The notes beneath the pieces are model-generated. The model was not told the DNA's origin. It saw nothing but the letters and a program-made list of their open reading frames with translations, and did not search any database. The translations under genes and the position numbers were made by a program. Shown here piece after piece: positions 1 to 20,730 of a stretch of DNA of 64,000 nt. Origin of the DNA: a virus; the IMG/VR virus record IMGVR_UViG_3300044995_000220. One strand, written 5' to 3'. The first letter of the stretch is position 1; every line of letters starts with the position of its first letter.

Positions 1-1383
1 TGCACCTCGCGTTGTTTGATATTGGTGCCCGGTGTACGGATCTGTTAGCGTAAGAAGATCAGTTTTTGCAGGTTCAGTTGCACGATAGTATGCGCCAGGT
101 CCGATAGATAGTTGGCCAAAATTGCTAGGCGCATATGCTTTTTGTCGTAGATAGTCTGTGATGCCGCCGCGCTTTTCAATCCATTCGCTAAATGGAGCGA
201 TTAGATCGTCGTTTACGGCGTCGGCGCGAAATTCGACAAGCGCGCCTAGTTTGGTCTCGACGTCGGGGTAACGTGCAATGATCTCGTTTAGTACTGGCTC
301 TAGCGCAACGAGGCGATCGAGGTCTGCATCACTTGGTGTAATGCCGGCTGTCTTAGCAAATAGATCAATTACTTCGCCTGTTGCTAGCACGACACCACGC
401 GATGTTAAAGACGCTAGTGTGCGTGTTACCCCAGCTGTTTTTGCTGTGGTGTAGATGTCATCAGGTAGACGGGGCCATTCGCGTACGAGCTCTTCGGCTT
501 GTACGCCGTAAGTGCTGTTGAGGGCTTTGGCCGTTTTGACAGCATTTGTACGAATTTCAATTGCGCGAGATTCATATGATCGGAGCTGTTCTCCAAGGTC
601 TGCGCTATAGCGTAGCGGTGCTTCGCTAGCGACTTTTTTCAGCATCCAGCCTGTAGGATCTGCTGGGCGAAAAACGAAGCTAATATCGAAAAATTTTGGG
701 CTTGGGTTCAGCACTGAAACTTTGCGACCGTCAGGTAGTACGCGGCGCAGCATTTGTCGTGTATGTTCGCAATACTGCGCGCGTGTTGGTGCGCGGTGTC
801 CGCAGATGGTACAGACATCCCATCGAACATGGCACCCCATACTGACGGCGGGGAAATCCCCGTCAGCGATGCGTTGTGCAATTTCTGGATCACGGCTGTT
901 GACGAATTTTAGTAGTAGTTCAACTCGGTGCATGTACGAGTTGTATAGTGCTTTGGTAATCCATCCGAGGGATTTTGTTGGGTCTTTGTTAACATGGTGT
1001 TTGTAGATACCACCATATCTTTCAAACGTTTGGTAATGGTGATGTAGTGTTTCAGGCTCAGAGACCCAGCCGTCGAGAGATTTGGTGCACTCTGGATGGC
1101 CACATGAGGCGAGTTCACCAACTTTGTATGGCGCATTTGGGAAACCGTCGCCGTTACGGTTATCGTCGTAGAATTCGTATGCGCCTAGGGCGTTGACAAG
1201 GATGTACGAGATACCTTCTTCTGGTTGTATTGTTGAAAGGAAGTCATAGAGCGGCGACTGGCCTTCGGCGAATGCGCGTTTTTCAATGCTCAAACCGCCG
1301 TGTGGGCCGCGCCACGCGACTAACTGTACCGTTGGTTCCCCGGTTTTTGGGAAGCGCGCATCTAGTTCTAGGAGCTTTTCCAT
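1..1383 (-). CDS. Prohead/capsid maturation protease with C-terminal extension (3'-truncated by window edge)
   Basis: Not in the ORF track. Translated by hand from ATG at 1383, open to position 1: MEKLLELDARF...YILVNALGAYEFYDDNRNGDGF...IYKHHVNKDP...DFPAVSMGCHVRWDVCTICG...YCEH...KFFDISFVFRPAD. The His, VSMG Ser and DISFV..PA pattern matches HK97/T4-fold phage prohead proteases; lies in the portal operon. Confidence 0.8.
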   Translation of the reverse strand, partial: MEKLLELDARFPKTGEPTVQLVAWRGPHGGLSIEKRAFAEGQSPLYDFLSTIQPEEGISYILVNALGAYEFYDDNRNGDGFPNAPYKVGELASCGHPECTKSLDGWVSEPETLHHHYQTFERYGGIYKHHVNKDPTKSLGWITKALYNSYMHRVELLLKFVNSRDPEIAQRIADGDFPAVSMGCHVRWDVCTICGHRAPTRAQYCEHTRQMLRRVLPDGRKVSVLNPSPKFFDISFVFRPADPTGWMLKKVASEAPLRYSADLGEQLRSYESRAIEIRTNAVKTAKALNSTYGVQAEELVREWPRLPDDIYTTAKTAGVTRTLASLTSRGVVLATGEVIDLFAKTAGITPSDADLDRLVALEPVLNEIIARYPDVETKLGALVEFRADAVNDDLIAPFSEWIEKRGGITDYLRQKAYAPSNFGQLSIGPGAYYRATEPAKTDLLTLTDPYTGHQYQTTRGA

Positions 1384-1568
1384 TGTATAGAAGAATATGT
1401 CGTTAGCGTGTGACGATATTAACACACAGCGCTAAGGACGACAGCGTTGTGCATGCGGTGTGTAGCACCTAGTAACATAGCAGGCGCACCGACACGCAAT
1501 GCACTTCGAAGTCGATTTTTGTCAAGTGTTCTGTTTTTATCGAACACGTTGTATGCATTACTTACGTA

Positions 1569-3059
1569 TTATGCCTTTATTGAGGGTTTGAAATTAAACT
1601 TTTCAATTAACTCTTTTTCTATATCTTTGATTTCTTTTTTCACACTATTTATCCAGTATTGTATCTCCGCTTTTTCTTCACGGGTTTTAGCGTTTTTGAG
1701 TTGCTTCTCCAATCTTGCCAAGTTTTTATGTCTAAAGTTGTATGTGTCGATAAGTTCTTCCTTAGGTGTCAGCATCGGTGTTGACTTAGTCGCTGTCTGC
1801 TGCGGTGCTTGTTGAACCGCTGGCGGGTGCGGCGCTTGTTGAACCGCTGGCGGGTGTGGCGCTTGTTGAACCATTGTCTGCTGCGGTGCGGGTTGTTTCG
1901 CTGGCGGGTGTGGCGCTTGTTGAACTGCTGGCGGGTGTGGCGCTTGTTGAACTGCTGGCGGGTGTGGCGCTTGTTGAACCGCTGGCGGGTGTGGCGCTTG
2001 TTGAACCGCTGGCAGGTGCGGTGTTGGCTGTGTTTTTTTCATCGATTTCAATGTTTCTCTTATTTCTTTGTATGCGTTTTCCAATTGTCGTTTACGTTGT
2101 GGCAAATTACGAGTTTCTTCTCGTACTAGTGACAAACTGTCGCGCATAAATTTGTTTCTATTTGAAAGGCCTCTCAGAGAGTATCCATAGCCATAGCCGC
2201 TTGCTCCGCCTAGTGCCGCGCCCATTAGACCTAGCCTTAACGCGCCACGCAATCTGTCATCATCATCAGCAAGTGCGCCAGCGCCTGCTCCCATAATTCC
2301 GCCTGTGATGGCGCCTCCTATACTAGGTATAATTGGATTTTTTATAAATTTTTTATAGAGTTTTGACTTATCCCAGTTAGCCCATTTAAAGTGTGTTTCG
2401 TGACTTAGTTTTGGTATTTCTAGCAAATCTCTTGATTTGGCTAAGTATTTTTTCGAGGCTTTGTTGATTGCTTTTGCTAGTGAGTTGCCTTTCGTTATTT
2501 CGCGGGTCACTAGCGCTGAAAGCGGAGCATTGAGCGCTGCACCTGTTGCAGCGCCAGCTAAGCCGTAACGCAATGCTCCTCTAACTGGATCTTCGCTGTC
2601 GGTAACTGCGCCGATACCCGCACCGAGAGCACCGCCAAGAGTGGTACCTGCAAGAGTGCCGCCGGCAGTAGCTAGCCACGGGTTTTTTCTAAGTGTTTTA
2701 TTGACACCCAAAATATGCATTTTAACATTGGCATTTTTTTGAAATTGGTTAAAGTCTCGCAGCGCAGATTCGGCGTTTAGATTGCGCAAAAATTCAATTT
2801 CAGATAGTGTATAGCTACCGTCGGCTGCAAGCTTATCCAGGGTTTCGTCAACTATGGCGGCGCCGACTAGCGACGTGACGAGGGCCTCTCGTGTTGCGCG
2901 GTCTGCACTCAATTTAGTACCAGCGTCACTCGATGCCCAAGCGTCCAATGCAAGGTGAGCTAAACCTTCAAGTAAAGTGGGACCTTGCTGTGCGGCCGCT
3001 GTTTTGATATTGCGCCAAAGTGATCGCGCTTCGTAAGGCTTTATGGCGTTATTTATCAT
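1569..3059 (-). CDS. Putative virion internal/ejection protein with glycine-zipper helices and Pro/Gln repeats
   Basis: 496 aa ORF; GxxxG runs (AGGTLAGTTLGGALGAGIG; IGGAITGGIMGAGAGAL; LGLMGAALGGASGYG), QQAPHPPAV repeats, C-terminal charged helix. Confidence 0.55.
   Translation of the reverse strand: MINNAIKPYEARSLWRNIKTAAAQQGPTLLEGLAHLALDAWASSDAGTKLSADRATREALVTSLVGAAIVDETLDKLAADGSYTLSEIEFLRNLNAESALRDFNQFQKNANVKMHILGVNKTLRKNPWLATAGGTLAGTTLGGALGAGIGAVTDSEDPVRGALRYGLAGAATGAALNAPLSALVTREITKGNSLAKAINKASKKYLAKSRDLLEIPKLSHETHFKWANWDKSKLYKKFIKNPIIPSIGGAITGGIMGAGAGALADDDDRLRGALRLGLMGAALGGASGYGYGYSLRGLSNRNKFMRDSLSLVREETRNLPQRKRQLENAYKEIRETLKSMKKTQPTPHLPAVQQAPHPPAVQQAPHPPAVQQAPHPPAVQQAPHPPAKQPAPQQTMVQQAPHPPAVQQAPHPPAVQQAPQQTATKSTPMLTPKEELIDTYNFRHKNLARLEKQLKNAKTREEKAEIQYWINSVKKEIKDIEKELIEKFNFKPSIKA
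1803..2020. repeat. In-frame 27-bp tandem repeat (QQAPHPPAV, about 6-7 copies with one interruption)
   Basis: Unit ggcgcttgttgaac(c/t)gctggcgggtgt repeated within the 1569-3059 CDS. Confidence 0.95.
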
Positions 3060-3306
3060 TATGCCATTCCTTTTCGGCGTTTAGATTGTACAGTTCCTTA
3101 TATGCTGTGATACCGTCACGGATAATGCTTTGGTTTACATGATCTACAGCGATCTTCATAGCTAAGGCTTTGACGGCTTCTGGTAGCGTTGGCGCAGCAG
3201 GGGGGTAGCCACCTCGTCGATAAACAACTTCAAATGCGAGTTTTGCCCAGCCGTGTGTGCGTAGCGCTGCGCGTAATCGCGGTGAAACTAGGTTATCAAT
3301 GTTCAT
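3049..3306 (-). CDS. Hypothetical protein (85 aa)
   Basis: Fills the gap between 3306-4745 and 1569-3059 with overlapping stop/start codons. Confidence 0.7.
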   Translation of the reverse strand: MNIDNLVSPRLRAALRTHGWAKLAFEVVYRRGGYPPAAPTLPEAVKALAMKIAVDHVNQSIIRDGITAYKELYNLNAEKEWHNDK

Positions 3307-4745
3307 TACGCATCACGCCCTTTTGCGTTTTGGATGAATTTTTCAGTTTCAGCCATCAAACGGATTGTCGCAAAATCTAGTCCGGATCCGTGCATTTTTG
3401 CCATAGTTGCTTGCCGAAGAAAGCTGCGAGTTGCTGATGGATTTTTAGCGATTGACGGCGCAAAATTTTTGAGTGTGTCGTATGCATCGATCAATCCTTT
3501 AGGATTTTCACGATATTCAGCTTGGAGCATGTCGTCACTTTCTAGTGCTTTTTGGAATGCTTCGCGGTGTTTTGGATCATCGAAAAACTTTTTCTTGAGG
3601 ACTTTATGAACGGCGTCGATTGGTTCTCCTACAAATTTTTGAGCAAGCTGGTTGGCCAGCGCCTGGGCCATGGCGTTCTGCATTAGAGGATAGACTTGTG
3701 TAGACGCTGCCTGCTTTTCTTCAGCGAAGTCATCGTAACTGGCGTATACAGACATTGTTGGCATAGGTGTCGTCATGTCGTACGCCGCGTTGTTCATGTA
3801 ATCTTGTATGCGGGCGTCCTGTTCAGCGGCAGTTGGTCCTCCCCGAAGTAGAGATGAGCCGAGCGCGAGACCACCAACGGTTAGTCCGATTGGTAATGCA
3901 TTACGCTCGATCCAACCTGGTTCAAGCGTTGAACTATAATTATCTGGGATTTCGGTCGCAGCTACGTTTTGTTGCGCCTGGTGTGAAGTTTGAGTAGTGG
4001 GTGTTGAAGTTTGAGTAGTGGGCGTTTCGGGAAGTGCGGGAGTTTGAGCAGTAGATTCTACGGGAGAAGTGGGAGTTTGAGCAGTAGATTTTGCGGAAGG
4101 AGTGGGAGTTTGAGCAGTAGATTTTGTGGGAAGAGGAGTGGGAGTTTGAGTAGCAGGTTGTGCGTTATGTGATGTGTTAGATGCCGTAGAGGTTGATGCT
4201 TCCTGAGGAGTACGAGTTGCTGGACGCGCCCGGTAATGTGCAGGTACTTTGTGTCCCTGCATTTTGAGGTACTCTTCAGGCGTCATATTTGAGTAATTGT
4301 TACGCCACGCGCGTCGATTAGCGAGTAGTCCATGCTGTCGCGCAAGTTGCGCAGCATTACGTAATTCCTGCTCTTCTCGCTGTAGCCTTCGTAATTGTGC
4401 GACGGCTTTATCGGCTGCGCGCACTGCGGAGAATTCTTGTTTTGCTCCGGCTAGTGCGCCGCGCAAGCGTTCGCTCATACGCGCAAAAAAACCAGGACCT
4501 CTTGCACCAACACCGACGCCTTGTGCGACGTTCGTTGTCAGTAGGCCTTTACGTGGTAGTGCGCCATGAGTATGCAGCGTATTGATTGCACGTTGGAGTG
4601 CTGCACGTGTTTTTTGGTTGCGCGCTGCTTCTGCCGCACCTTGACGAAATCCGCGTAGACCTGCGGCGATTTGGTGAAAAATATTGGCGTTTTTTTCTAG
4701 GTTAGCGTCAATGTATGAAAGTACTTCGTTAGTAATGTTATCCAT
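3306..4745 (-). CDS. Putative virion internal protein with basic N-region, Thr/Pro linker and one hydrophobic helix
   Basis: 479 aa ORF; Arg/Ala-rich N-half, STAQTP repeats, LPIGLTVGGLALGSSLL segment, helical C-domain. Confidence 0.6.
   Translation of the reverse strand: MDNITNEVLSYIDANLEKNANIFHQIAAGLRGFRQGAAEAARNQKTRAALQRAINTLHTHGALPRKGLLTTNVAQGVGVGARGPGFFARMSERLRGALAGAKQEFSAVRAADKAVAQLRRLQREEQELRNAAQLARQHGLLANRRAWRNNYSNMTPEEYLKMQGHKVPAHYRARPATRTPQEASTSTASNTSHNAQPATQTPTPLPTKSTAQTPTPSAKSTAQTPTSPVESTAQTPALPETPTTQTSTPTTQTSHQAQQNVAATEIPDNYSSTLEPGWIERNALPIGLTVGGLALGSSLLRGGPTAAEQDARIQDYMNNAAYDMTTPMPTMSVYASYDDFAEEKQAASTQVYPLMQNAMAQALANQLAQKFVGEPIDAVHKVLKKKFFDDPKHREAFQKALESDDMLQAEYRENPKGLIDAYDTLKNFAPSIAKNPSATRSFLRQATMAKMHGSGLDFATIRLMAETEKFIQNAKGRDA
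3988..4155. repeat. Degenerate in-frame tandem repeats (STAQTPT / TQTSTP linker)
   Basis: Recurring gggagtttgagcagtagatt and gaagtttgagtagtgg units in the 3306-4745 CDS. Confidence 0.85.
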
Positions 4746-5598
4746 GACGCGTAACTTTCTTTAGGTTAGCAATTTTTGTTGCGATTTTGTTTTGGCGTTC
4801 GATAAGTGTTTCAAACTTAGCACGAATTTCCATAGCAACTTTAAGGCGATTCGTAAGCTCGTCTGGTATACCGACCCATTTTTGTTGTAATTCGGCGAGC
4901 TTCATTTTGACTTCGTTTTCTGCTGCACCTTCTCCTAATTCACTGCGGCCGCAGCGGTAACGAATAGCATTCAGCTCTGGTAACACATCGGCACCAAAAA
5001 GTGCCACTGCGTTTTTTTCGAAATCGTCGTGGTTCCAATTTTGGTATCGTGTATGTTCGACTATAGCGTTTATGGCGTCATCCCATGCGAAGTTCAATTG
5101 ATGGCGCTCGATCGCGAGATCGGCAGCTTGTTTTTCTGCGCGACGTAGTTCTACGAATGGGGAACGATAGGATGGTAAGAAATTATCGATTTCGTGGGTC
5201 AGTGCAGCAATTTTTTCTCGTGCGAAGAGTTTAGGGTTTGGAGGAGGAGGCGCGTATTCGTCAGGTAAATCTGGATATTCAGCCTCAGCTTGTTTTGTGT
5301 GAGCAACCGCTACAGTTTGTCGTAGATTTTCAATTACGGCTTCTGGGTCAGCTAGTTCAAAATAAGGTGAGCGATCTGCCTGCCCTTTTAATGCTGCGTA
5401 TTTCTGCTCAAATGCTTTGGTGTTGGTGTTGCGGCAGAGGCGGCGGATTTGTTCGGGGTTGAGACCGTTGTCGCGTGCAACTTTTGTTGCGAGTTCATTC
5501 AGTGACGCGCCGTTTTGGTCGCGGCCGGCCCAAAAAGCACGCGCGATGGCGGTTGCCTCGCGATCAAAGTCAGCGTTATCCCATGTAGCCATCGGCAT
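4738..5598 (-). CDS. Hypothetical head-operon protein (286 aa)
   Basis: Long ORF in operon; helical, C-terminal coiled coil. Confidence 0.75.
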   Translation of the reverse strand: MPMATWDNADFDREATAIARAFWAGRDQNGASLNELATKVARDNGLNPEQIRRLCRNTNTKAFEQKYAALKGQADRSPYFELADPEAVIENLRQTVAVAHTKQAEAEYPDLPDEYAPPPPNPKLFAREKIAALTHEIDNFLPSYRSPFVELRRAEKQAADLAIERHQLNFAWDDAINAIVEHTRYQNWNHDDFEKNAVALFGADVLPELNAIRYRCGRSELGEGAAENEVKMKLAELQQKWVGIPDELTNRLKVAMEIRAKFETLIERQNKIATKIANLKKVTRHG

Positions 5599-6413: not shown

Positions 6414-9146
6414 TTATGTCGTGCGCTGATTTTTAGGTAACAGTTGGTCGCCGTACTGTTCTAACGTTAGAATCGCATCGCCCAGCATACGGAATACGTC
6501 GCGGACGACTTGCTCCATTGTTATATAAGCTTCTTCTCCAATTCGTTCGCGGATTTGCTTGCTTTTTATGTAGAGCAGCAAAAGTGTGCGTCCTAGGCGA
6601 TCGAGCGCATTGTCAAGTGAAGGTAAGTAATTTTGAAGGAGAGAACGGATACTACGCACGTTAGCAAGTGACGCTACCGCCGCTACGTCGAAGACTCCGT
6701 CTTGATCGAGTTCAATAGCTTGGTCAAGGAATTGTGGTGCAATTTGTTCGGCAAAAAGTGTTGGGTTTGGTTCTTTAGTCATTACCGGTTGCGGTAGAGA
6801 TTGCCCTTGCATTGCATTTGGATCACCGCTTTGCATCGCGTTCGGATCAACGTTTTGCATCGCGTTCGGATCAACGTTTTGCATCGCGTTTGGATCAACG
6901 TTTTGCATCGCGTTTGGATCAACGTTTTGCATTGCGTATGGATCACTGCTTTGCATTGCGTATGGATCACCGCTTTGCATTGCGTATGGGTCTACGTTTT
7001 GCATCGCGTTAGGATCAACGTTTTGCATTGCGTATGGAACAGCTTCCTGCATTAGTGGATAGCCTGGCCCTCCCTGCATGAAATATTGTTGATTCATATC
7101 TGGAACGGGTGCCATAGCTGATTGCCCCATCATGTTTTGTGCTGGTCCCGCTACCATGCTTGCTGCTCCAATGGGAGCGGCCATTGCGCCACCACCCTGG
7201 TCGATGCTTTGGGCTCGGTTTTGAAGTTCAAGAAGCATTTGTTCCATTTGGTCTAGCGCTGCACGCTGCGCTTGGATTAGTTGCATCTTTTCTGCGATGG
7301 CGAGGTCAATCCCTGTCATTTGTGGTGGTGTTTGTGTAGCAGCCATCGCATTTGGATCTTGCATTTCGGGCGGAAGTTCGTTGTTATTAGGTGCAGCCAT
7401 TTTCGGCATGGCCCATGCTTTGAGTGGTAGATCATTAGCTACTGCTTCAACGACGCGCGAAGCATCTGGAACGCTTACGCCGTATAGATTGGCAACTTTG
7501 ACGACAGCTTCGAGTGCTGATAGCTTGGTGCGTTCATTACCTACACGGAACCCGTCATGATCACGTGCAACTTTGATACGTATGGCGCCAGTTTTTTCAC
7601 TGATCTTTTCTTCGATTGCTCTCATAATTAGCTGTGGGCGCGTAAGTAAATCACGTTCGGTAATCTGTTTTTTGATTGGAAACCAACGATAGCTTTGTGG
7701 GAAAACCATGACGTTTTGCGAGGGAGGCGCCACGATTTTTGATCCCCGCATTTTTTTTGAAATTACAATTGTTATATTGTTATCAGTACCAAAAGAAATT
7801 ATGTCACCGCGAGTTGTAGGTTGCTCCGCGGTGAATGGCTCGGTTGCACGTAGTGTCAAATCTTCAGACGAGATCAATACGCCTCGTTGATTTGCTTGTG
7901 GGCTTTCACGTGTCAATGCTTTAAGCATTGCAGTGATTTCACCGAATGTATCGTGGACGATGGGCTCCGCGACGAGTTCTGAAATGCATCCGCCTCGCCC
8001 ATCAACAAAAAGCACGAGGTACTTTCGGTCGCTTTTGTTGTATGGGGAAGGTACTTCGTTGAGTGTTTTACGGTTGTATGCACCGTATGCCATCACTTGA
8101 TGGTCTGTTTTCGGTGGTTCCACGCAAATTGGATGTGTTACAATGATTGCTTTTTCATTTGTGCCATCTGCTAAGTATACACGGTAAACGCCGGGGTACT
8201 CGGGTGTTGTTAGCGCTAGTGCTTCTTCGTTGAATACAGCGATATCACTTAGCGGACCAGTCCGTCGGTCCTTGATATAGAAGCCGTAGTAACGCAGTGC
8301 TTGGTAAGCTCTAGGTACTTCGTCTGGTGCGATTTCTTTCCGCACTTCTTGCAGAGGGGTACCTGCGACGGCAAGATAAACATCGTGCTTAAGTGGTATT
8401 TCAGTACGGAATCCAGCCGCTGTTTTGGCTGGCGCTTCACGCATAGCGAATGCGTCGCGTAGGACGTCCGCGCCGTAAATTTCCGCCATTTTACGGAGGT
8501 AACGCGGATGCTTTGTTAACCACTTCGTGTACGCTGTTTTGATGCCATCTGGCAAGCGGCTCACTAGTTCAGGAAAAACAAATGGGGCGTCGTTTGCCGC
8601 GCGTTTTTCGTTTTCATATGCAGCGCGAAATACTTCGAAAAGTTCTTCGTCGCTGACTGTTGTAGGATCAAATTCGGCAGCGTAACTATAACGTCCCGTT
8701 GTAGGCGGTACGACAATATTTCTGATGTCGACGTCTGTGTTAAGATCTTGGGGTAGTTCAACGCCTTGGCCGAGGGAGCTTATACCGTTGGTAGTGACTT
8801 TTTCGATCCATGCAGCTGTAAGCGGATAAAATCGGTCTTTTGACCGTACATACATTATATCGAGGGGCTTTACGGCGTTATCTACAACTACTGCTGGGAC
8901 AAATAGAATCTCAGCTTCACGTTTGAGGATGAACGCACCGATGCCTTCACCAGCGGGTGCGTCAGTTGCTAATACGCGGAAGGATACGAGATCTCGATAT
9001 AGTTCTGGGTGAGTCTTTTGAAATGCTTGATACGCAAGGTCTGAAAATCCTTTAGAAAAAAGCTCCTCTTCGTCGCTAGGACTTACGGGCTGAGCGAAGC
9101 TTTGTGTACGAGGCGACTGTGAGAGCGGAAAACCGTTCATGGGCAT
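6414..9146 (-). CDS. Large hypothetical head-operon protein (910 aa) with Met/Gln/Pro-rich repeat region
   Basis: Long ORF; AGGAG Shine-Dalgarno upstream; AMQNVDPN repeats. Confidence 0.8.
6806..7037. repeat. In-frame 24-bp tandem repeat (AMQ[NV/SG]DP[N/Y], about 9-10 copies)
   Basis: Unit ggatcaacgttttgcatcgcgtt(t/c) and variants within the 6414-9146 CDS. Confidence 0.95.
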
Positions 9147-10219: not shown

Positions 10220-10265
10220 GGTCGGGGTGTTCCTCGTTTTAGTACATTGGGGTTATTTTATTAAA

Positions 10266-10305: not shown

Positions 10306-10333
10306 ATTCGGTGAAATAGTTGTGAATGTAGGA

Positions 10334-12514
10334 TCATTCTTGGCGCAGCTGCGCAATGTAACCTGCCCGCAGTTCTTCAGGCATACCAGCAAGTGCAATT
10401 ACGTGAGCACGTTTTTCTTTTTGTGACATCGTTGCAGGGAGTAAACCACCCCACTTTGCGGCCGCAGCTTTTACTTTTTCTTCAAAGTTTACGCGTTTAT
10501 TGTTACGCGCATTTAGCAAAGCGCCAACTTGCCCGACATTTGGCATATCAGTTTCACCGTTGTCTGTGATGTATTCGTCGGGTTCGCGATTTTCTTTGTC
10601 GAGTTCAGCGTTGGCATTGTATTCCGCTGCATCTTCAAGTGTATTTTCGTCCACTTCATTCAGTGAACCGTCTGCTGCTGCTTTCAACACTTCGAGAAGC
10701 TGTGCTTCTTTTTCGTATTCGTTTTCATCGAACTCTTGCTCTTCTTGGTCCGCGCCTCGATTATGCAGAGCATGCATTGCAGCAGCACCGCCAGCTGCGC
10801 CCAGAATTGCACCAACAGCGGCTCCAGGACCATGCCTCTTGGCCGCTCTTCCGACTGCCGCTCCAGCCCTAGCTGCTTGTCTCTTAACCTTTGAAGCTGT
10901 CGTTCCTAGGGTGTTTTTAGTCTTAATTGCTGCACGTCGGATTGCTTTACTTGCGCTACGTGCAGCGCTTCGAATCTTCTTCATTACATCCTTTGCAGCG
11001 GCGACTTTTGCGTCGTCGTTTTCATCAGGTTCATAGTCATTGTCTTCATCAATCAAACCTCGATCTGCGAGTTCTTGTGCGACCGCAGAAACAAGTTTTG
11101 TATTTGGTTTAGCGCCATGCTCTTCTTGTGCATCCAGTACGTCATCAATAGTGTTGTCAAGTTCTTCAGCCGTTTTTACGTTTTGCATAATATGCGCCAT
11201 TACTTCGAGGCCAGGAGTACCTGCCTCGGCAAGCGCTGCTGACGCAAGAACAAGCTTTGGCGTCACAGGTGCTTCGCGATTGGCGAGACCTTCTACGAAC
11301 ATTGTGGCGCGCGCGACTTTTTCAGCTTCCTCTGAAACATCTTCTTCTACATCTTGGTCCACGTCCCGATTATGCAAAGCATGCATTGCAGCAGCACCGC
11401 CAGCTGCGCCCAGAATTGCACCAACAGCGGCTCCAGGACCATGCCTCTTGGCCGCTCTTCCAACTGCTGTTCCAGCCCTAGCTGCCTGTCTCTTAACCTT
11501 TGAAGCTGCCGTTCCTAGGGTGTTTTTAGTCTTAATTGCTGCACGTCGGATTGCTTTACCTGCGCTACGTGCAGCGCTTCGAATTTTCTTCATTACATCC
11601 TTTGCAGCGGCGACTTTTGCTTCGTCGTCGCTGTCATAGTCACTGTCATCGTCACTGTCATCGTCGTAATCCTCATCAATCAAACCGTGATCCGCGAGTA
11701 CCTGTTCAATCGCTGCAACGAGCTCTGGATCAGGTTCAACGCCATGCTCTTGTTGTTTATCTAGTACGTGATCAAGAGTGTTATCGAGTTCTTCGGCAGT
11801 CTTTACGTTCTCAACAATGTGGGCCATCGTTTCAAGGCCAGGAGGACCCCCTTCAGCAAGCGCTGCTGACGCAAGAACAAGCTTTGGCGTCACGGGTGCT
11901 TCACGTGCAGCGAGGTCTTGAATAAACAGCACAGCTCGCGCAATCTTTTCACTCGATTGTTTATCTAAGTGCGTGAGGCTGTTGTCGATCGCGGGGCCTT
12001 TCGGAGCCATTGGGTGAGGAATTTGCCTACCGACTACACCGCCTTCAGGCATGTCGGTGTTACCTGCGCCTACAAGGTATTGGAGCGACGATCGATTTTC
12101 TTCGTCGAGATCAGCGAGTGCGTTAGTTTCCGCTGCGCTCTCTAGCGTGTTAGGTCCAGTATCGTTTAGTGACGCTTCTTCTGCGGTTTTGGCCATCATG
12201 TAGGAGGCAATTTTCATTGCTCGCTCTTCTAACGGCATATAGGATGCCTGCTTTGCCATCGCTTGGACCGAGGCGGAGGGCCCATAGCCGCGCCTTACTG
12301 CCTCATCTGATGCGTCGATGAGCCATTGGCCGATCTTGATGTAGGCATCGTTCGGCAGCGGTCCTTCTAGGATCTGTGGTAGGCCGAGGTCAGTTGAAAT
12401 TTTATCGAAGACTCCGATGGCGAGGTCGTCATCTGCAAAAGGCGCCATGCGTCCAGCATCGGACATGCCGTCAGCCATGCCCTTGAGAAATGTGCGAGTA
12501 AATAGAGTTGACAT
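10334..12514 (-). CDS. Modular head-operon protein with internal 609-bp duplication
   Basis: 726 aa; two tandem copies of acidic module plus basic Gly-zipper module; similar N- and C-terminal motifs (SLN..NTLE.AA..NA...LD.ENR...Y...G.TDMP). Confidence 0.88.
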   Translation of the reverse strand: MSTLFTRTFLKGMADGMSDAGRMAPFADDDLAIGVFDKISTDLGLPQILEGPLPNDAYIKIGQWLIDASDEAVRRGYGPSASVQAMAKQASYMPLEERAMKIASYMMAKTAEEASLNDTGPNTLESAAETNALADLDEENRSSLQYLVGAGNTDMPEGGVVGRQIPHPMAPKGPAIDNSLTHLDKQSSEKIARAVLFIQDLAAREAPVTPKLVLASAALAEGGPPGLETMAHIVENVKTAEELDNTLDHVLDKQQEHGVEPDPELVAAIEQVLADHGLIDEDYDDDSDDDSDYDSDDEAKVAAAKDVMKKIRSAARSAGKAIRRAAIKTKNTLGTAASKVKRQAARAGTAVGRAAKRHGPGAAVGAILGAAGGAAAMHALHNRDVDQDVEEDVSEEAEKVARATMFVEGLANREAPVTPKLVLASAALAEAGTPGLEVMAHIMQNVKTAEELDNTIDDVLDAQEEHGAKPNTKLVSAVAQELADRGLIDEDNDYEPDENDDAKVAAAKDVMKKIRSAARSASKAIRRAAIKTKNTLGTTASKVKRQAARAGAAVGRAAKRHGPGAAVGAILGAAGGAAAMHALHNRGADQEEQEFDENEYEKEAQLLEVLKAAADGSLNEVDENTLEDAAEYNANAELDKENREPDEYITDNGETDMPNVGQVGALLNARNNKRVNFEEKVKAAAAKWGGLLPATMSQKEKRAHVIALAGMPEELRAGYIAQLRQE
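10759..11950. repeat. Intragenic direct duplication, offset 609 bp (203 aa)
   Basis: Blocks 11368-11620 and 10759-11011 are nearly identical at DNA level; the upstream acidic modules are also similar. Confidence 0.9.
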
Positions 12515-12547: not shown

Positions 12548-13225
12548 CTAAGTTGTTTGAGACGATTCGTCAGTGTTAACAGTTTTATTGAGTGGAGAGC
12601 GGCTCTTCCACACACGCATTAGGTGCCGTGGCACATTGAGTTCGAGGTTTTCAGGTGTTGGTGGAGGAGCAAGCTTTGGATCAAACTTTGAACCAACGTA
12701 GCGTGCAGCACCTTGCACTGCGCCTTGTACTGGGATGCCAAGCAAGCCTAGGCGCGCTGTGAAGGGCGCCACTACCATACCTGACACCGCATGCGCAATA
12801 TCGCCACGTCGTGTCGCTGGGTCTCCTTGTAATATAATGTTACCAAGTTCTAGTGCTGGCATGCCAAGTGATAGCGCTTTCACCCATGTCGGAGACCCAG
12901 GTGAAAGATAGAAATCTTTGATTTGTCCTCCTATTGTGCGCGCGAGGCTACCTGTACGCTTGTAGCGCTGGGACAGTTGTTGCGCTAGGGTGATTGGGCT
13001 GCCGAAGATGGCTTCTCGGCCAAATTCAGCGACGTGTTTACCGAATGTTTTGAGTTTATTTGAAAAGCCGCGACCAGCAGGCGCTATTTTGTGCTCACGA
13101 AATAGGTCCTTTAGACCGTATCGGCCAAAAATGCGCGAGCGCGCTGCTGTCTTTACGGTGTTTAGGCGTTCTTCGAAGTCAGAATGTACCACTGGAACCA
13201 TGACGGAATTCCGCGCCGTAAGCAT
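12548..13225 (-). CDS. Hypothetical head-operon protein, basic with hydrophobic C-terminal helices
   Basis: ORF 12548-13270 in track; ATG at 13225 (or 13201) reduces overlap with the upstream RNAP gene; start uncertain. Confidence 0.65.
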   Translation of the reverse strand: MLTARNSVMVPVVHSDFEERLNTVKTAARSRIFGRYGLKDLFREHKIAPAGRGFSNKLKTFGKHVAEFGREAIFGSPITLAQQLSQRYKRTGSLARTIGGQIKDFYLSPGSPTWVKALSLGMPALELGNIILQGDPATRRGDIAHAVSGMVVAPFTARLGLLGIPVQGAVQGAARYVGSKFDPKLAPPPTPENLELNVPRHLMRVWKSRSPLNKTVNTDESSQTT

Positions 13226-14984
13226 ATGCTGGTACGGGATGTGTGCTGTGAATGTTTGAAGTTTCACCAAAATGTGCGGCTTCTAGGATTGTATTTTTGA
13301 GATAACGGTGAGCAAGACGCGCCATCCAATCCTTTTCTAACAAAGGATTCATAGTAAATGGTTTCATTACGAATTCAACTGGGGGCATGCTGCGATTGAT
13401 GTAAACCTCAGTTACGCCATGTGAGGCTAGTTCTCGTGCTAGAGCAGGCGTAATAAGAGTACCAACGGTATGATGCAGCACTTCTTGTCCAAGTCGCTGT
13501 CCGACAGCATTATCTAGCGGTACGCGCGTTGATCCTTCGCGATAGGCTTCGCGAAAGGCGTTATAGTTGATAATGTCGCCTTTTAGTAGTTCAGGGTGGT
13601 TTGGATCTGTGTCAAGTAGACGTACATGATTAATTTCACTTTTTGCAAGTAGTTCGAGATGACGTCGATCAAGATTAATGCCCTCGTTTTTGTAGAGGTT
13701 GTGCATTGCGTCAACAAAATACGCGCGTCCAGCACCGAGGCCTTTATATCCGACTATTTTTGCAGGATGAGGCACGCCATCGGTTAGCGCGTCACCGCGT
13801 TCAACCACGTCACCTTTTTTTACACGCAATGTTAGGTCAGGATGGGTATATACTTTCTTTTCGCCAATATAGATGTAGTGCCCTCCTTGCGGGGCTTTCT
13901 CAATTTTCGTTATAGTTCCATGCTCAGGAGCGAGAACTGCTTCATGTCGAAATGATGCGGGCACTTCTAATAATTGGCGTACACCTTTTAGTCCTGTTGG
14001 AAATTTATTCGTTGATTTGATTGTAAGTGTACCGTGACGTGATGAAAGCGCCATCTGTGTTAACGGTTCAGCCATAGCTTGCGCGGCTCGTACGCCGACA
14101 GGCGTACCTATTTGGTGTAATTTTCCTTTTTCATTGTGCCCTTGGCACATTTGGCAAACACCGCTTTGAGCGATGCACGTCATAGGTGAGCGTACAAGTA
14201 GACGATCAACATGTTTGGCTTTTAGTTGTTGAACAATCTGTGGCGTGACTAGAGTATTGCGGGGTAAACCATGATCAGCCTGTGTAAATCGGTCTAGGAT
14301 ATGGCTGTCATCGATTGACATCTTTACGCCGTTCATGGTTCCGCAGTCAGTTGTCGTCACAACAGTGGAAATAGTGTTTGCAACGAGTACTTTGGCCATT
14401 TCGCCAGGCTCCGATACTGAAATGCGAGCCTTAACTTCGTTTTCGCGGATTTCTGGGCCAGTCATCCAGTACTGCGCTGGAGTGAGTCCTTCGGCGTAAG
14501 ATCGATCAATTAGTTGGTGAATCACGCCATGTTTAGGGTGCACTGTTGCAAGCGGCGTTGCGACAATTTTCATAAGTTGGGCTGGATTCCCGCGCGCGCC
14601 AGATAATGCCATATGTGTCATTGAACCGGGGTGTTTTTTAGTATGAGCGAGTAGTTTCTCTTGTGTTTCAACAATCAATCGTTGACGCGCTGTTGGGTCT
14701 TTGAGTTTTTCAAGTTTTGCAAGTGCGGGACGAATGATAGCATCACGTTCTTTGTAATTAGGCTCGATGTCGTCTAAACCGACGGAAATTCCTTCAAGCG
14801 TTGCAATTTCGTCCCCACGTCGTTTAAGTGCTTGTATTGTTGAAACGTATTTTTGTGGGTCAGTTTTGGCAAGATTGACAAGATGGTCATGTAGTTCTTT
14901 GTTTGTAATTGGGCCACGGATTTCGTAGCCCTTAGGCATTACATCATTGATTAAAAAATGTCCAACTGTCGTCGCCATAGGCAA
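13179..14984 (-). CDS. rpoC: RNA polymerase beta' subunit, C-terminal half (RpoC2-like)
   Basis: SGARGN, bridge-helix region YAEGLTPAQYW...PGEMAKVLV, DCGT plus SPMTC...GVCQMCQG zinc site, trigger loop GVRAAQAMAEPLTQMALSSRH, GLKGVRQLLE. ATG at 14978 is the likelier start. Confidence 0.93.
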   Translation of the reverse strand: MPMATTVGHFLINDVMPKGYEIRGPITNKELHDHLVNLAKTDPQKYVSTIQALKRRGDEIATLEGISVGLDDIEPNYKERDAIIRPALAKLEKLKDPTARQRLIVETQEKLLAHTKKHPGSMTHMALSGARGNPAQLMKIVATPLATVHPKHGVIHQLIDRSYAEGLTPAQYWMTGPEIRENEVKARISVSEPGEMAKVLVANTISTVVTTTDCGTMNGVKMSIDDSHILDRFTQADHGLPRNTLVTPQIVQQLKAKHVDRLLVRSPMTCIAQSGVCQMCQGHNEKGKLHQIGTPVGVRAAQAMAEPLTQMALSSRHGTLTIKSTNKFPTGLKGVRQLLEVPASFRHEAVLAPEHGTITKIEKAPQGGHYIYIGEKKVYTHPDLTLRVKKGDVVERGDALTDGVPHPAKIVGYKGLGAGRAYFVDAMHNLYKNEGINLDRRHLELLAKSEINHVRLLDTDPNHPELLKGDIINYNAFREAYREGSTRVPLDNAVGQRLGQEVLHHTVGTLITPALARELASHGVTEVYINRSMPPVEFVMKPFTMNPLLEKDWMARLAHRYLKNTILEAAHFGETSNIHSTHPVPAYAYGAEFRHGSSGTF

Positions 14985-16221: not shown

Positions 16222-19200
16222 TTAGTTATTTACGCCTGTCAGCAACTCTGGCGGAAAATAGAATAAGGCTTCGTCAGGGCTAATGGAATAAACTGGCGCA
16301 GTGAGGTGTGGTCCTTCACTATAGTTATCAGCGCGCTTTTCGGTTTCGTTTTCAATTTCGATAGCGTCTGATAGCTTCAATTCGCCACGTCGATATGCTG
16401 CGAGTGCGTCTTCTCTCGTTTTGAATTTGCGCACTGGTCCAGTAGGAATTGTGTGTTTTGATGCGAGCGTGAATGCGATGATAGCTTCGTGTTGCGGAAA
16501 GACCATAAGTTTGTTCCGTTGTTGATCACTTAACAATAGGTTGCTAAGAGTCATTTGCTTAGCTTCTTGCACAGCTTCAGGACCGATTGGGAAGTGTACC
16601 TGCAAAGTGTCACCGTCGTAGTCTAGGTTCATACCTTTTTCGGCGAATGAGGACACGCGTATTGTTTTGCCGGGTACGGGTTTAGCGTACGCAGCGATAA
16701 TCGACCCTCGATGCAGTGTGGGCGCTCGATTGATAAGTACTGGGCGCTCGCGAATTTCTTCCAACAGCGCATTTCGCGCGGCAGGCGCGCGTTCATTGAC
16801 TAGTTCACGCGCTTGGAGCGCAGGGTAACCGGTGCGGATCAACCGCGCGACAATTAGTTTGTCAAGTGCCTGCCACAGCATATCCTCCGGAATACCAACT
16901 TCGTCCATACTCAAGTTTGAATCGGGTACAGCAGTACCACGTCCCGATACATCTTGTGTATGACGCATTAGCTTACGCTGGAAAAAACCTCCTTTTGGTG
17001 TACCGACGCCTGAAATATTTGCAAGTAAGCCTTTAACTTTCTGTTGTTGAAGTTTTGGGTCGCGAGGCAGCGCTATACCATATAGCTCTTCGACTTTTTC
17101 GTAGAGATCCAAACGATGTTTGCCTAAATCTGATGGTACAGCTGTTGTCTTCAGCGTTTTGTTCGAATCAAGAAGTTGACTGTAGAGTTTATTTACGTCG
17201 GATACCATTAGTTGCGACGGATCGTGAACGCTTGGCAAAATTGGACGGAATACTGGAGGAATGACTGGTACCTTGCTGATCACGTAGGCGTCGGCGGGGT
17301 TTAAATTATGCTTTTGAAGTGCTTCTAAGTATTTGATTTGCTTGACTACATCGTCGAGCGCAGCTCCTTTGGCGGTTTTGAGCTGTTCACGTAGTTCACG
17401 AAGTTTACGCGGTACATCGATCTTCGAGAGTTCATGGCGAAACCATGCACCCCCGTTAGTTCGCAGTGCGGTCCTGAATTGTGTTTCAGTCATGCCGAGC
17501 AGACGGCGTACGGGCTCTTCGAATACAGGATTTGGGATAGGCTCGTGCAAATCAATATGAGAAAAAAGTGCGCCTTGTAGACCGCCGGTCTTACGAGGAT
17601 CAAATAGACCGCCGGGCATTGGTTTGAGATCTTTCGCGCGCACCGTTGTGTTATTTTCGATTGCTCCCGAACTGCGCGTTAGCACATCTTTGTCAGTCAT
17701 TGGTAGTAGCGAGAATTTTGAACCACGCTTATCTACCTTTACGCCTGCGCCTTCTAGCATTCCAATAAACTTATTGAAGGCAAACGATGGCTTTGGTTCT
17801 GGTAGCGGCAATCCCATTTGCACGGCTTTCCAATATTCATCGTTCTTTTGACCACGAACTGTTGTTGCTTCGCGCAGAAAGCTGCGTGCGTTGTGTGCGA
17901 GCAGCGCATCAAATTCCATTTTACCGATGCTTTTAGCGCTTTCGTCTCCCCCAGTCTTGAGAGGCTGTTCGTTGATGTCATAGGGTCCGACACCGTGACC
18001 AGAGAAATTGGTGTCAGTACTTTTGAACAGTTTATAAATATACTGTTTACCGACTAGTACGCCTTTGCTGTCGGGCCCAATAATTTTACGTTTGAGTATT
18101 GGATCGTAGAGTACTTCTTTGTCTTTGACGCCGTGTTTGTTCAGTAGGTCACGGGCCCATTTGACAGCGTCATGGCCTGCCGTGTTGTCATATACGATTG
18201 GTTTTCCTGTTTTTTCAGCGACTTTTGAAACAGCTGTTTCAATAATTTGCGCGGGGTTGATACGTGATACGACTCCGGCCGACGTCATTAACAGATCAAG
18301 TGGACGCCCTTGTTCATCACGCAGCATTTCGTGGTCTGGTACGATTTTGGCGACGACACCCTTATTACCGTAGCGACCTGCGAGCTTGTCGCCAATTTGC
18401 ATAGGTTCGCGTGTTTTTACAAGGATTGTAATTTGTTTATTTGAGCGTACTACATCGATAATTTCACCAGGCACACTGTGTTCCCAAGTCAGTGCGATGT
18501 CTTTGAATGGTTTGACAAGTGATTTACTAAGACGCCCAAGTATGGCGTCGGTACCAGTTACAGATTGTTTCATTAGGCCCGCTACAAGTAAGTCTTTCGG
18601 ATCAACTTTTGTGCCTTTTTTGATTACACCGCTCTCATCGAGTTTACTGTACATTGACGCGGGGTATTTAGCACCGTAGTAAAGTTGATGCTTTGCACGG
18701 TTCAGTTCGGTGCCCGTACTAATCGGAAAAACCTCGCGATACATGTGTTCGCTGGTTAGTTTTCGCGCTGCGGACTCCGAAATTACGACGGCATCGTTTG
18801 AGTTGTAGCCGTAGTACGGTAAGTATCCAACGAGTAGATTTTTGCCTAATGCAAGCACACTGTTACGCGTGTAGTTTGACTCTGCAAGGCGCTGACCTTC
18901 TTTAACTTTGTCACCAGGCTTTACGCTGACAGTGTGATCTAGGAACGTTTTCGAAGGAAACGGAAATTTTTGATAGTAGGGCACCTTAATGAGTCCAGCG
19001 TCGCCTGCTGCTGCTCGTTTTTCAGCATGTGGCTTAATGTATATGAATTGATTGTCGATCTTCGCGACGGTCCCCGAAACCGGTGCAGTCGGCACGATCA
19101 TATGGCCATAAATTGTTTCAAATGAATGGCCATCTGGATGATGTGATTTAACTTGCACAAGTGGTGCTTCGCGCTCCACGAGCGGCAACGCTTGCGTGCC

Positions 19201-20730
19201 CATCTTGGATCCCATGATCGCGCGGTTACCTTGGATTGAGTGGATCAATGGGATTAGCGTTGTTGCTGGTGAGTACATGTACTTGACGTGATCAAGTTGG
19301 TGTGTCACCTGACTTGCAGGTACACGTGTTTGTTTGCCATTGACGAATGCGTCGACTGTGCCTTTGAGTTCTTGGTGAGGAAACGCAACGACATATTTGT
19401 GCAAGTCGCCAGCTCGTATAAATTCCTCTTTACCAGTCTTTACATTGCGTAGTACTGTGTAGAGGTTACCTTTGTCGTCACGGTGCGCGGCAATTGTTGC
19501 CCGAATATCTACACCTGAGTGGTTTGATTCAGGTGTGCGAATTGGATCCAGTGCACCAAAGTGCGTGTTGTGGATCATGCGCGCGTCCAGGGGGATTGCG
19601 CGGTCTGAGGGAATTCCGCCTTCACCGAGACTCGTCACTTTCACTGCGTGATCGATGATTTCCATTGGATTGATTCCCATGGGAACGCTAGAAAGTGACG
19701 ATGTTGTGACGAACTTACGGATTGCATCCGAGAACGGCGCAGGTTTAAGGGCGTCTCGGATTACGTTTTTGTTTGTTAGTGCTAGTTTTGCTTTAGGTAT
19801 CCATTGACGAGAGGACAGACGAATTCGTTCTGAGATGAAATCATCAAGCGCATGAAATGTTTTGAATTTTAGTGAGTCAGTGTCATCAACTTGCGCTTTG
19901 CCAGCATGGACATCGAGTATTTTCTTCGCAGCGCTAAGCAGCGTCTCAGGTGCGACCTTAGTGTGCGCAGAACCAAGTGTTTCGCTCGTTACTTCAGGAT
20001 CAAGCGTTGATTGGTTATAGTGCTTTTTGATAGCTTCGACTTTTGCTTCATGTGACGCGTTTGGATCCAGCACAGCTGGATGCTCTAGCTTTGTGTAAAG
20101 CTTGTTAATTGTTGGCGCAATTTGGTGTCCGTACTCTTTTTCATTGGCGCGCGCTACGCCTTCGCCTAAGTGCTTAGCAATTTGGCTGTGCTCAACGCCA
20201 AGGCCTCGCAATACGGCGTAAAGAGGCAAATTTGACGTACCATATTGAAGGTAGAATGTTCCTTTATCAGGATTAAATGTGAGATTGAAGTTTTTTCCGC
20301 GCCCGAGGTTGAATACTGTTTTGAGTTCGCCGTTGTCAGCTCGCTGGGTGTAAACTCCCGGTTTGCGGCGTAATTGGTTTGCAATTTGATATTCGTTGCC
20401 ATCTACGATGATGGTGTGGCGCGATGTTAAGTACGGTATGTGCGCTAGCGTAAAGTTTTTTGCTTCGTCGAGAATTTTTCCGTTTGCGTCTTTAAGTACA
20501 AGTGTGCCTTTGACTGGTTCATAAAGTGATGAACCTTTCATAAGTGCGTTGTATTCGTCCGATGGTGCAAAATCTTGTGAATTTACACGTACATCTTTGA
20601 TTTCCAGCGTTTTACCCTTGAGTTCAAGGGGGAAAACAGTAGTTAACGCCTTAGTTGTCTTTTCGTGCAGTTTTTGGCGAAGTGTAGCTGCGCTGGTCAG
20701 TACGGGCGTTGGTGCACTCATCTCAATCAA
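16222..20730 (-). CDS. rpoB: RNA polymerase beta subunit fused to N-terminal half of beta'
   Basis: beta motifs: IIVDGNEYQIANQLRRKPG, INPMEIIDH..VTSLGEGG, HFGALDPIRTPES, NRAIMGSKM, GYNSNDAVVISE, GDKLAGRYGNKGVV, SRIN, GKMEFDALLAH. From about 17730: beta' motifs GGLFDP, PVIPPVFRP, SDVNKLY, VLINRAPTLHR, NLDYDGD. ATG at 20721 is the likelier start. Confidence 0.95.
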   Translation of the reverse strand: MIEMSAPTPVLTSAATLRQKLHEKTTKALTTVFPLELKGKTLEIKDVRVNSQDFAPSDEYNALMKGSSLYEPVKGTLVLKDANGKILDEAKNFTLAHIPYLTSRHTIIVDGNEYQIANQLRRKPGVYTQRADNGELKTVFNLGRGKNFNLTFNPDKGTFYLQYGTSNLPLYAVLRGLGVEHSQIAKHLGEGVARANEKEYGHQIAPTINKLYTKLEHPAVLDPNASHEAKVEAIKKHYNQSTLDPEVTSETLGSAHTKVAPETLLSAAKKILDVHAGKAQVDDTDSLKFKTFHALDDFISERIRLSSRQWIPKAKLALTNKNVIRDALKPAPFSDAIRKFVTTSSLSSVPMGINPMEIIDHAVKVTSLGEGGIPSDRAIPLDARMIHNTHFGALDPIRTPESNHSGVDIRATIAAHRDDKGNLYTVLRNVKTGKEEFIRAGDLHKYVVAFPHQELKGTVDAFVNGKQTRVPASQVTHQLDHVKYMYSPATTLIPLIHSIQGNRAIMGSKMGTQALPLVEREAPLVQVKSHHPDGHSFETIYGHMIVPTAPVSGTVAKIDNQFIYIKPHAEKRAAAGDAGLIKVPYYQKFPFPSKTFLDHTVSVKPGDKVKEGQRLAESNYTRNSVLALGKNLLVGYLPYYGYNSNDAVVISESAARKLTSEHMYREVFPISTGTELNRAKHQLYYGAKYPASMYSKLDESGVIKKGTKVDPKDLLVAGLMKQSVTGTDAILGRLSKSLVKPFKDIALTWEHSVPGEIIDVVRSNKQITILVKTREPMQIGDKLAGRYGNKGVVAKIVPDHEMLRDEQGRPLDLLMTSAGVVSRINPAQIIETAVSKVAEKTGKPIVYDNTAGHDAVKWARDLLNKHGVKDKEVLYDPILKRKIIGPDSKGVLVGKQYIYKLFKSTDTNFSGHGVGPYDINEQPLKTGGDESAKSIGKMEFDALLAHNARSFLREATTVRGQKNDEYWKAVQMGLPLPEPKPSFAFNKFIGMLEGAGVKVDKRGSKFSLLPMTDKDVLTRSSGAIENNTTVRAKDLKPMPGGLFDPRKTGGLQGALFSHIDLHEPIPNPVFEEPVRRLLGMTETQFRTALRTNGGAWFRHELSKIDVPRKLRELREQLKTAKGAALDDVVKQIKYLEALQKHNLNPADAYVISKVPVIPPVFRPILPSVHDPSQLMVSDVNKLYSQLLDSNKTLKTTAVPSDLGKHRLDLYEKVEELYGIALPRDPKLQQQKVKGLLANISGVGTPKGGFFQRKLMRHTQDVSGRGTAVPDSNLSMDEVGIPEDMLWQALDKLIVARLIRTGYPALQARELVNERAPAARNALLEEIRERPVLINRAPTLHRGSIIAAYAKPVPGKTIRVSSFAEKGMNLDYDGDTLQVHFPIGPEAVQEAKQMTLSNLLLSDQQRNKLMVFPQHEAIIAFTLASKHTIPTGPVRKFKTREDALAAYRRGELKLSDAIEIENETEKRADNYSEGPHLTAPVYSISPDEALFYFPPELLTGVNN

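Follow-up and report, generated by a model that had tools for sequence, protein, structure and literature searches.

Known prohead proteases and the present locus

Assemblin, the protease of the herpesviruses (MEROPS S21), cuts at the consensus (V/L/I)-x-Ala|Ser. Enzymes of the T4 and phiKZ type cut after Glu (at L/I-x-E or A/S/G-x-E), trim themselves past the catalytic domain and act on multiple propeptide sites, and a cut after Glu is common to all T4-type prohead proteases characterised (PMC5694885, PMC10052503). The present analysis concerns the prohead protease and the head proteins of an uncultured phage of ~123 kb, IMG/VR record IMGVR_UViG_3300044995_000220, of which a stretch of 64,000 nucleotides (hereafter the window, whose first letter is position 1) represents the minus strand of one 123,104-bp contig. 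A first reading of the window, referred to below as the original prediction, had noticed a recurring tripeptide, Lys-x-Ala (K-x-A), in the proteins encoded at 1-20730, and had proposed that the head protease reads this motif in itself and in many cargo proteins. The motif is real and tied to the head module, and every test of specificity and conservation fits that proposal. K-x-A is, in our judgement, likely to be the recognition and cleavage code of the prohead protease, with the cut probably falling after Ala; the wider consensus would read hydrophobic (L/M/I), E/T/V, K, T/V/I/Q, A and then S/A/E.

The closest described system is that of T4 gp21 (MEROPS S77). It provides the best structural match, and here as in T4 an enzyme, in this phage with a candidate Ser/His pair, is encoded between portal and capsid genes, adjoining the scaffold gene; the code would likewise span three residues with the first and third positions fixed, and self-trimming, scaffold fragmentation, capsid propeptide removal and processing of internal proteins are all predicted. 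The locus differs from T4 in that the fixed residues are Lys and Ala, not Leu/Ile and Glu, Glu-ending motifs being unenriched, and the protease, for which sequence searches of PDB and Pfam gave no match to gp21, also carries an invariant insert (CxxC...CxH) and is extended by ~385 residues at its C-terminus. By the enrichment test the protease stands outside the Glu-specific group, yet by analogy it probably works in the same way. Assemblin belongs to the same fold superfamily and shares with the present motif an Ala at the presumed P1 position and a preference for Ser/Ala next, but has a hydrophobic residue instead of Lys in the third-last place and is a weaker structural match than gp21.

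The enzymes phiKZ gp175 and SPN3US gp245 also come from large phages that package a multisubunit RNA polymerase (RNAP) and many ejection proteins in the head, and with them are known many head proteins carrying a short motif, multiple propeptide sites and a self-cut after the catalytic domain (PMC5694885, PMC10052503), features that are here predicted. Those enzymes cut after Glu at sites mapped by mass spectrometry, whereas the sites described below are K-x-A and predicted from sequence. Although a prohead-protease code as such is already known, a K-x-A specificity is not known from reports on any phage protease, and a full-text literature search returned no paper on a K-x-A (Lys-x-Ala) phage protease motif.

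The motif in head modules of distant phages

The closest cultured relatives, Salmonella phage Arash and Vibrio phages D181, D148 and D69, are remote (protease identity 29-39%), and further relatives from IMG/VR are at 41-87% identity. All ~340 testable a-x-b residue pairs were scored in an unbiased scan against per-protein shuffles. K-x-A ranked first in the head modules of nine phages, as follows.

This phage, head module without RNAP and portal genes but with the genes down to the capsid gene: K-x-A 81 observed vs 44.5 expected, z 6.6
Arash, gp217-226: 48 vs 24, z 5.3
D181, head module: 51 vs 23, z 7.0
IMG/VR relative L008, head module: z 10.7
IMG/VR relative L012, head module: z 8.2
IMG/VR relative L009, head module: z 6.3
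IMG/VR relative L010, head module: z 5.4
IMG/VR relative L011, head module: z 4.7
Bacillus phage G, gp14-28: z 3.2

In the tail and replication modules tested in this phage and six relatives, K-x-A was unremarkable (ranks 11 to 314), and tail modules are low in it (9 vs 13.7 in this phage; 4 vs 9.9 in D181). The five-residue form of the motif given in the original prediction, [EAV]K[TIVQR]A[AS], occurred 3-9 times per head module, with 0.1-0.5 expected, in seven relatives on which the original prediction had not drawn; in this phage it was found once in the replication genes (0.3 expected), never in the tail genes (0.2) and once in the remaining genes (0.5). An absence of enrichment, which would have spoken against the original prediction, is accordingly not what nine head modules display.

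Over-representation in head proteins relative to other proteins of the same phage is weak for bare K-x-A in exactly the range 1-20730. A count against per-protein shuffles, of the kind originally proposed, does reveal an excess there (70 observed vs 52.1 expected, z 2.8, p 0.0044), which persists when the pair of paralogous repeat genes is left out (53 vs 39, z 2.5) and when both RNAP genes are (59 vs 38.8, z 3.6), but it barely rises above the background of the replication genes (35 vs 27.4, z 1.6) and is weak alone. Over 17 genes (window -524 to 23048, which takes in the whole protease and two upstream genes) K-x-A came no higher than 14th among 325 a-x-b pairs, in part owing to tandem repeats that raise the counts of other pairs. 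With a count so near the replication background and such a rank, the proposed test would have been inconclusive by itself; a strong signal emerges once relatives, conservation and flanking residues are brought in. The reverse motif A-x-K was not enriched in 1-20730 (54 vs 52.4), which rules out a simple effect of Lys/Ala-rich composition.

Two tandem in-frame repeats were seen in the head proteins, namely ~9 copies of PHPPAVQQA in a 496-aa protein (1569-3059) and ~10 copies of DPNAMQNV-like units in a 910-aa protein (6414-9146), and it is such repeats that inflate other a-x-b counts, A-x-Q among them.

The K-x-A examples listed in the original prediction are all present in the genes to which they were ascribed, all on the minus strand, although some of them are probably chance occurrences. 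QKIAA in the 5619 gene (genes are named here by their left window coordinate) is kept in 1/11 orthologs, the N-terminal sites of that gene being unconserved; PKEAAA in the 9260 gene is kept in 4/9; and the flanks of most K-x-A sites in the fused RNAP gene resemble those of non-head sites.

Conservation and flank preferences

Among close relatives, the Lys of K-x-A in head proteins was kept in 0.88 of comparisons, as opposed to 0.74 for other Lys (Fisher p 6e-6), while in replication proteins the two values, 0.83 and 0.80, were not significantly different. Measured against all relatives, K-x-A Lys exceeded the local background by +0.15 and other Lys by -0.01 (p 4e-5), and such above-background conservation was confined to head proteins. 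The conservation in homologs whose absence would have refuted the original prediction is present, beyond background, in the head-protein orthologs.

A flank matrix was trained only on the K-x-A flanks of distant relatives (L008, L012, Arash and D181). It favours L/M/I two before Lys, E/T/V directly before it, Q/V/T between Lys and Ala, and S/Q/E/A after Ala, and it scores Pro, Gly, Tyr, Cys and Trp negatively; of these, Pro, Tyr, Cys and Trp are depleted in the position that follows Ala. When the matrix was applied to this phage, head sites had a mean score of +0.4 and non-head sites means of -2.2 to -3.2 (p 8e-12).

The prohead protease and its predicted self-cleavage sites

The protease gene runs off the left edge of the window, positions beyond which carry negative numbers. 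Its relevant features are listed below.

1..1383, continuing to -524, minus strand: prohead protease gene, N-terminal 461 of 635 codons; match to the PHROG head maturation protease, E 2.8e-10
1273..1281, minus strand: predicted N-terminal self-cleavage site K35-R-A37 (IEKRAF)
994-996, minus strand: candidate catalytic His130, codon verified by translation
841..843, minus strand: candidate catalytic Ser181 in VSMGC, codon verified by translation
628..636, minus strand: predicted C-terminal self-cleavage site K250-V-A252 (LKKVAS)

The start was placed at the ATG at 1383, giving 635 aa, because homologs begin M-x-K-I-x-E-L; the GTG at 1425, which would give the longest open reading frame (ORF), is probably wrong. 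With this start the numbering of the original prediction was reproduced, EKRAF occupying residues 34-38 and VSMGC positions 832-846. The catalytic domain spans residues ~38-245 and is followed by a poorly conserved linker with further K-x-A sites (529-537 and 346-354). A total of 1289 protease homologs was found.

An AlphaFold model of the protease (pLDDT, predicted local distance difference test, 82) had T4 gp21 (5jbl) as its best match among solved structures (Z 9.6, root-mean-square deviation 3.3 A over 141 residues), the next match reaching 6.2; the herpesvirus proteases gave Z 5.6 (varicella-zoster virus, VZV), 4.8 (human cytomegalovirus, HCMV) and 4.0 (Kaposi's sarcoma-associated herpesvirus, KSHV). 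Foldseek likewise listed gp21 and the herpesvirus proteases first, weakly (E 0.14). Going by this model, the catalytic domain has a T4 gp21/assemblin-like fold. S181 and H130 are invariant in an alignment of 48 sequences, and we infer that they form the catalytic pair. In T4 gp21 the pair is H85/S140, with a Ser-His spacing of 55 (bioRxiv 10.64898/2026.03.04.709575); the spacing here is 51 residues, and the superposition was one without residue-level equivalence.

Both flanks of the catalytic domain carry the motif, as the proposal of two-sided self-trimming in the original prediction had implied. At the C-terminal site, K250 and A252 are invariant in 118/118 protease homologs (52-99% identity), and conservation collapses right after them. 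The site falls in the sole internal segment with a pLDDT below 50, past the last strand of the catalytic domain, and its flank score of +6.1 is the highest of all sites. An equivalent [LM]-x-K-[VI]-A is found in Arash gp222 and phage G gp19, and K-Q-A in Rhodococcus phage E3 gp77. The N-terminal site is less strictly maintained among the 118 homologs (E34 in 118, K35 in 95, A37 in 93), but is kept in 12/12 locus orthologs and has a flank score of +2.7. The cuts themselves are predictions.

After the candidate catalytic Ser there is a CxxC-x10-CxH pattern (C191, C194, C205, H207; window 763-813), invariant in 48 aligned homologs and found also in Arash, phage G and E3, which looks like a zinc-knuckle insert. 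In two relatives (L007:4377-7388 and L010:8354-11329) the protease ORF is ~1000 aa long and its match to the family starts only near residue 193, at VSMG|C, and in a third homolog (P0097, 831 aa) Pfam identifies two intein domains, PF05203 and PF14890; an intein at the candidate catalytic-serine motif therefore appears to be present in some family members.

Scaffold-like and capsid proteins

Beyond the left edge of the window, the genome continues with the gene for a scaffold-like protein of 183 aa, followed by two small genes, one coding for 172 aa and the capsid gene (307 aa), so that the order on the minus strand is portal homolog, RNAP and cargo genes, protease, scaffold-like gene and HK97-fold capsid gene. 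Within the head module, the protease gene has the portal gene on one side and the capsid gene on the other, and it adjoins the scaffold-like gene.

The scaffold-like protein holds 11 K-x-A where 2.3 are expected. Its orthologs hold 7-13 each, in the form of K-T-A-S/G islands that are kept amid substitutions and indels. The capsid protein is of the HK97 fold (Foldseek E 5e-9) and 41% identical to the major capsid protein of Arash; its lone K-x-A, at a helix break in the N-terminal arm, has K28 in 120/121 and A30 in 121/121 homologs and is present also in Arash and D181.

Predicted mechanism and rival explanations

By analogy with T4 and phiKZ, a Ser/His protease of gp21/assemblin fold would be incorporated in the core of the prohead and become active once the shell has assembled. 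Cuts at K35-R-A37 and K250-V-A252 would release its own catalytic core of 215 residues, and the scaffold-like protein, with 11 sites in 183 aa, would be broken down to small peptides. The HK97-fold capsid protein would lose ~30 N-terminal residues (K28-L-A30), and the internal cargo and ejection proteins whose genes lie between those of RNAP and the protease would be trimmed or split. The placement of the cut after Ala, with Lys at P3 and Ala at P1, is suggested by the P3-x-P1 geometry of the T4 L/I-x-E and phiKZ A/S/G-x-E sites and by the Ala|Ser sites of herpesvirus assemblin.

Several observations weigh against a cleavage code. The bare excess in 1-20730 is 1.34x, barely above the 1.28x of the replication genes, and the idea that conserved sites lie in less conserved surroundings found no support, the flank identity being 0.52 vs 0.53 on average. 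Rhodococcus phage E3, a more distant carrier of the protease family, has no K-x-A enrichment, and the capsid protein of phage G is without any K-x-A. The capsid residues K28/A30 lie within a well conserved N-terminal segment, so their invariance could be structural. Co-folding of the protease core with the scaffold N-terminus gave no answer (score 0.01), which is evidence neither way. The virion study of Arash gives protein coverage only, 100% in the case of the scaffold-like gp223 (PMC10585845); the paper and its supplement, which consists of gene and protein sequences only, are without cleavage mapping or peptide lists, and the multi-omics paper on phage G is without cleavage data.

It is conceivable, if improbable, that K-x-A is never cut and is instead a binding or capsid-targeting tag, read by the non-catalytic part of the protease, the scaffold or the inner shell surface, that loads the prohead. 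Head-module specificity and conservation fit such a tag equally well, the K-x-A-rich gp223 was reported at complete peptide coverage in Arash virions, and the capsid site lies in a conserved, helix-rich N-terminus. A tag leaves unexplained the invariant copy in a disordered linker precisely where the catalytic domain ends, the 7-13 copies in each scaffold protein and the i/i+2 pattern, which mirrors P3/P1 of gp21-type sites; nor are the two readings exclusive, since targeting sequence and cleavage site coincide in T4. There is also a small chance that the protease uses the motif but cuts it elsewhere, for example directly after Lys. HK97-type proteases, which have the same fold, cut after Lys, as at Lys103|Ser104 of the HK97 capsid protein. 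That only K and A are fixed in the present motif would allow a cut after either; yet the T4/phiKZ-type enzymes, nearest in structure, recognise P3 and P1 and cleave behind the latter, the second of the fixed residues (PMC5694885), and the preference for S/A/E/Q after Ala, together with the depletion of Pro/Tyr/Cys/Trp, is as at P1' and at herpesvirus Ala|Ser sites.

That the motif has no specific function and simply arises from composition or helix structure in head proteins rich in Ala, Lys and Glu, with paralogous repeats raising its count, would agree with the modest bare excess, with the figure for the replication genes and with the repetition of the same modules in the 9260 and 10334 genes. 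We consider it very unlikely, given that A-x-K is not enriched and that, of the ~340 pairs, K-x-A comes out on top in each of nine independent head modules. The fixed residues, K and A, stay invariant amid varying flanks, a flank matrix learned from distant phages also works in this one, and the excess survives removal of the repeat genes. Scarcely credible, finally, is a protease that retains the Glu rule of T4 and phiKZ (x-x-E) with K-x-A unrelated to it. Glu is indeed 2.9-fold enriched directly before the Lys of K-x-A, and E34 at the first protease site is invariant, beyond K35 or A37; but Glu precedes Lys in just 18/95 head sites, and the residue before K250 at the invariant second site is K/Q/M in homologs. 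The head genes hold [ASG]-x-E 97 times vs 107 expected and [LI]-x-E 84 times vs 69, neither enriched, and x-E pairs are not among the top motifs of any head module except for L-x-E, fifth in L010 (z 3.1). Glu-ending motifs of the T4/phiKZ type were rejected as the code here for want of enrichment in the head genes.

Were the K-x-A code correct, Lys-x-Ala would be a new specificity within the gp21 fold, and the Ala at the presumed cut position would recall herpesvirus assemblin. Mature virion proteins, propeptides and packaged cargo would become predictable for a large uncultured clade with virion-packaged multisubunit RNAP, and the code is directly testable in the cultured relatives (Arash, Vibrio phages D181/D148/D69 and phage G). 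Protease specificity also bears on host defences that sense prohead proteases via decoy loops (bioRxiv 10.64898/2026.03.04.709575). A broader scenario can be put forward only tentatively, in which a large, mostly uncultured clade of gp21-fold enzymes (at least 1289 homologs, including those of Arash, Vibrio phage D181 and probably Bacillus phage G) may have switched from a Glu-ending to an assemblin-like Lys-x-Ala|Ser/Ala code, the 9260 and 10334 proteins might be split into acidic modules and cationic Gly-zipper peptides, and the packaged RNAP beta might be cut in the loop that holds, in relatives, a pyrophosphatase-like insert between two copies of the motif. E3-like actinophages appear to be without the K-x-A code.

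Other candidate substrates

Conserved, well-scoring sites occur within the window in the 1569, 3049, 3306, 4738, 6414, 9260/10334 and 12548 genes, which are set out here with a further gene elsewhere in the window.

1569..3059, minus strand: 496-aa Gly-zipper protein; candidate sites K19-T-A (2997-3005) and K76-L-A (2826-2834)
3049..4745, minus strand: 85-aa and 479-aa proteins; candidate sites AKLAF (3235-3243), EKNAN (4686-4694) and EKQAAS (3708-3716)
4738..5598, minus strand: 286-aa protein; 10 K-x-A vs 2.6 expected, z 5.0 (shuffles); strongest sites at 5476-5484, 5287-5295, 5206-5214, 5125-5133, 5008-5016 and 4894-4902, each kept in 8-11 of 11 orthologs
6414..9146, minus strand: 910-aa head protein; candidate sites EKRAA (8598-8606), RKMAE (8484-8492), AKTAA (8418-8426), VKVAN (7491-7499) and PKMAA (7395-7403)
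9260..12514, minus strand: pair of paralogous cargo genes built of repeats (319 aa with 4 K-x-A, 726 aa with 13); example sites at 12245-12253, 12182-12190, 11795-11803, 11609-11617, 11000-11008 and 9710-9718
12548..13270, minus strand: protein of ~222-240 aa; N-terminal VKTAA (13145-13153)
43570..44631, minus strand: 353-aa protein, two ORFs from the terminase gene; 9 K-x-A (e.g. QEKVAEL, TKVAAS, VKIAAA), outside the range of the original prediction

In the 496-aa protein, K19-T-A is kept in 6/8 and K76-L-A in 8/8 orthologs (30-57% identity), with flank scores of +3.0 and +3.8; retention in orthologs is 8/8 for AKLAF, 6/6 for EKNAN and 6/9 for EKQAAS, and the flank score of each is positive. 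A strict-column alignment of eight orthologs of the 910-aa protein has K and A of AKTAA and VKVAN invariant while their neighbours vary, and with a tolerance of +/-6 columns the sites are kept in 7/10 (EKRAA), 10/12 (RKMAE), 9/12 (AKTAA), 9/12 (VKVAN) and 10/10 (PKMAA) orthologs. The proteins of the 9260 and 10334 genes carry K-x-A at the starts of acidic modules (EK[IV]AR), within these modules (NVKTAEE) and at the starts of basic/Gly-zipper modules (AKVAAAK); their orthologs have 12-19 K-x-A each, with 5-8 expected, but because the repeats are paralogous these sites are not independent counts. In the 12548 gene, the N-terminal site appears as VK[TI]AA in 7/10 orthologs under strict columns and in 8/10 with tolerance; the start of this gene is probably downstream of the TTG at 13270, in view of a 92-nt overlap with the upstream beta'-C gene and of orthologs of 222 aa. 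As judged from its motifs, the 353-aa protein, whose K-x-A are kept in 17/18 ortholog comparisons at a mean flank score of +1.1, is likely a further head protein or protease substrate encoded off the head operon.

RNA polymerase genes and genome context

Window 1-23048 forms a single minus-strand block, whose upstream part comprises the following genes.

21300-23048, minus strand: portal homolog, first in the head block
16222-20730, minus strand: fused RNAP beta/beta'-N gene
19012..19020, minus strand: candidate site K571-R-A (HAEKRAAAG) in a variable loop of the fused gene, weakly supported
13179-14984, minus strand: RNAP beta'-C gene (601 aa)

Between the RNAP genes and the protease lie ~12 genes that belong to no database family. 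No match was obtained when 12 kb were compared with GenBank phages by megablast. A Pfam search of the head proteins brought nothing useful, the protease and capsid sequences had no hit in the PDB, and a PHROGs search with the scaffold, capsid and small head proteins gave none either. In Arash, the RNAP subunits, the portal and gp222, the homolog of the protease, are virion components (PMC10585845).

The RNAP and portal genes have no K-x-A excess and non-head flanks (11 vs 10.2 in the fused RNAP gene), and RNAP as a heavily marked substrate was rejected on these grounds, the loop at 19012-19020, which keeps K-x-[A/G/S] in relatives, being the sole remaining candidate. The beta'-C protein has no K-x-A at all where 3.2 are expected (z -2.0); the scarcity of the motif here and in the tail modules may be avoidance in proteins that must stay intact.

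A single base distinguishes the 64,000 of the window from the genome copy, a G in place of T at 12601, inside the 12548-13270 gene. In three relatives (L021:5397-5849, L018 and L022) the RNAP loop receives an insert of ~140 aa flanked by EKKAE and EK[TVE]AA, with weak matches to inorganic pyrophosphatase (PF18823, E 0.0014; PF00719, E 0.0086; both below threshold); with K-x-A on either side, the insert may represent a domain that is looped out or released by proteolysis. A further relative, L020, has an intein-like insert of ~360 aa in RNAP beta, which starts with Cys, ends in SGNS and interrupts the conserved DKL|AG aligned to window 18379-18387.

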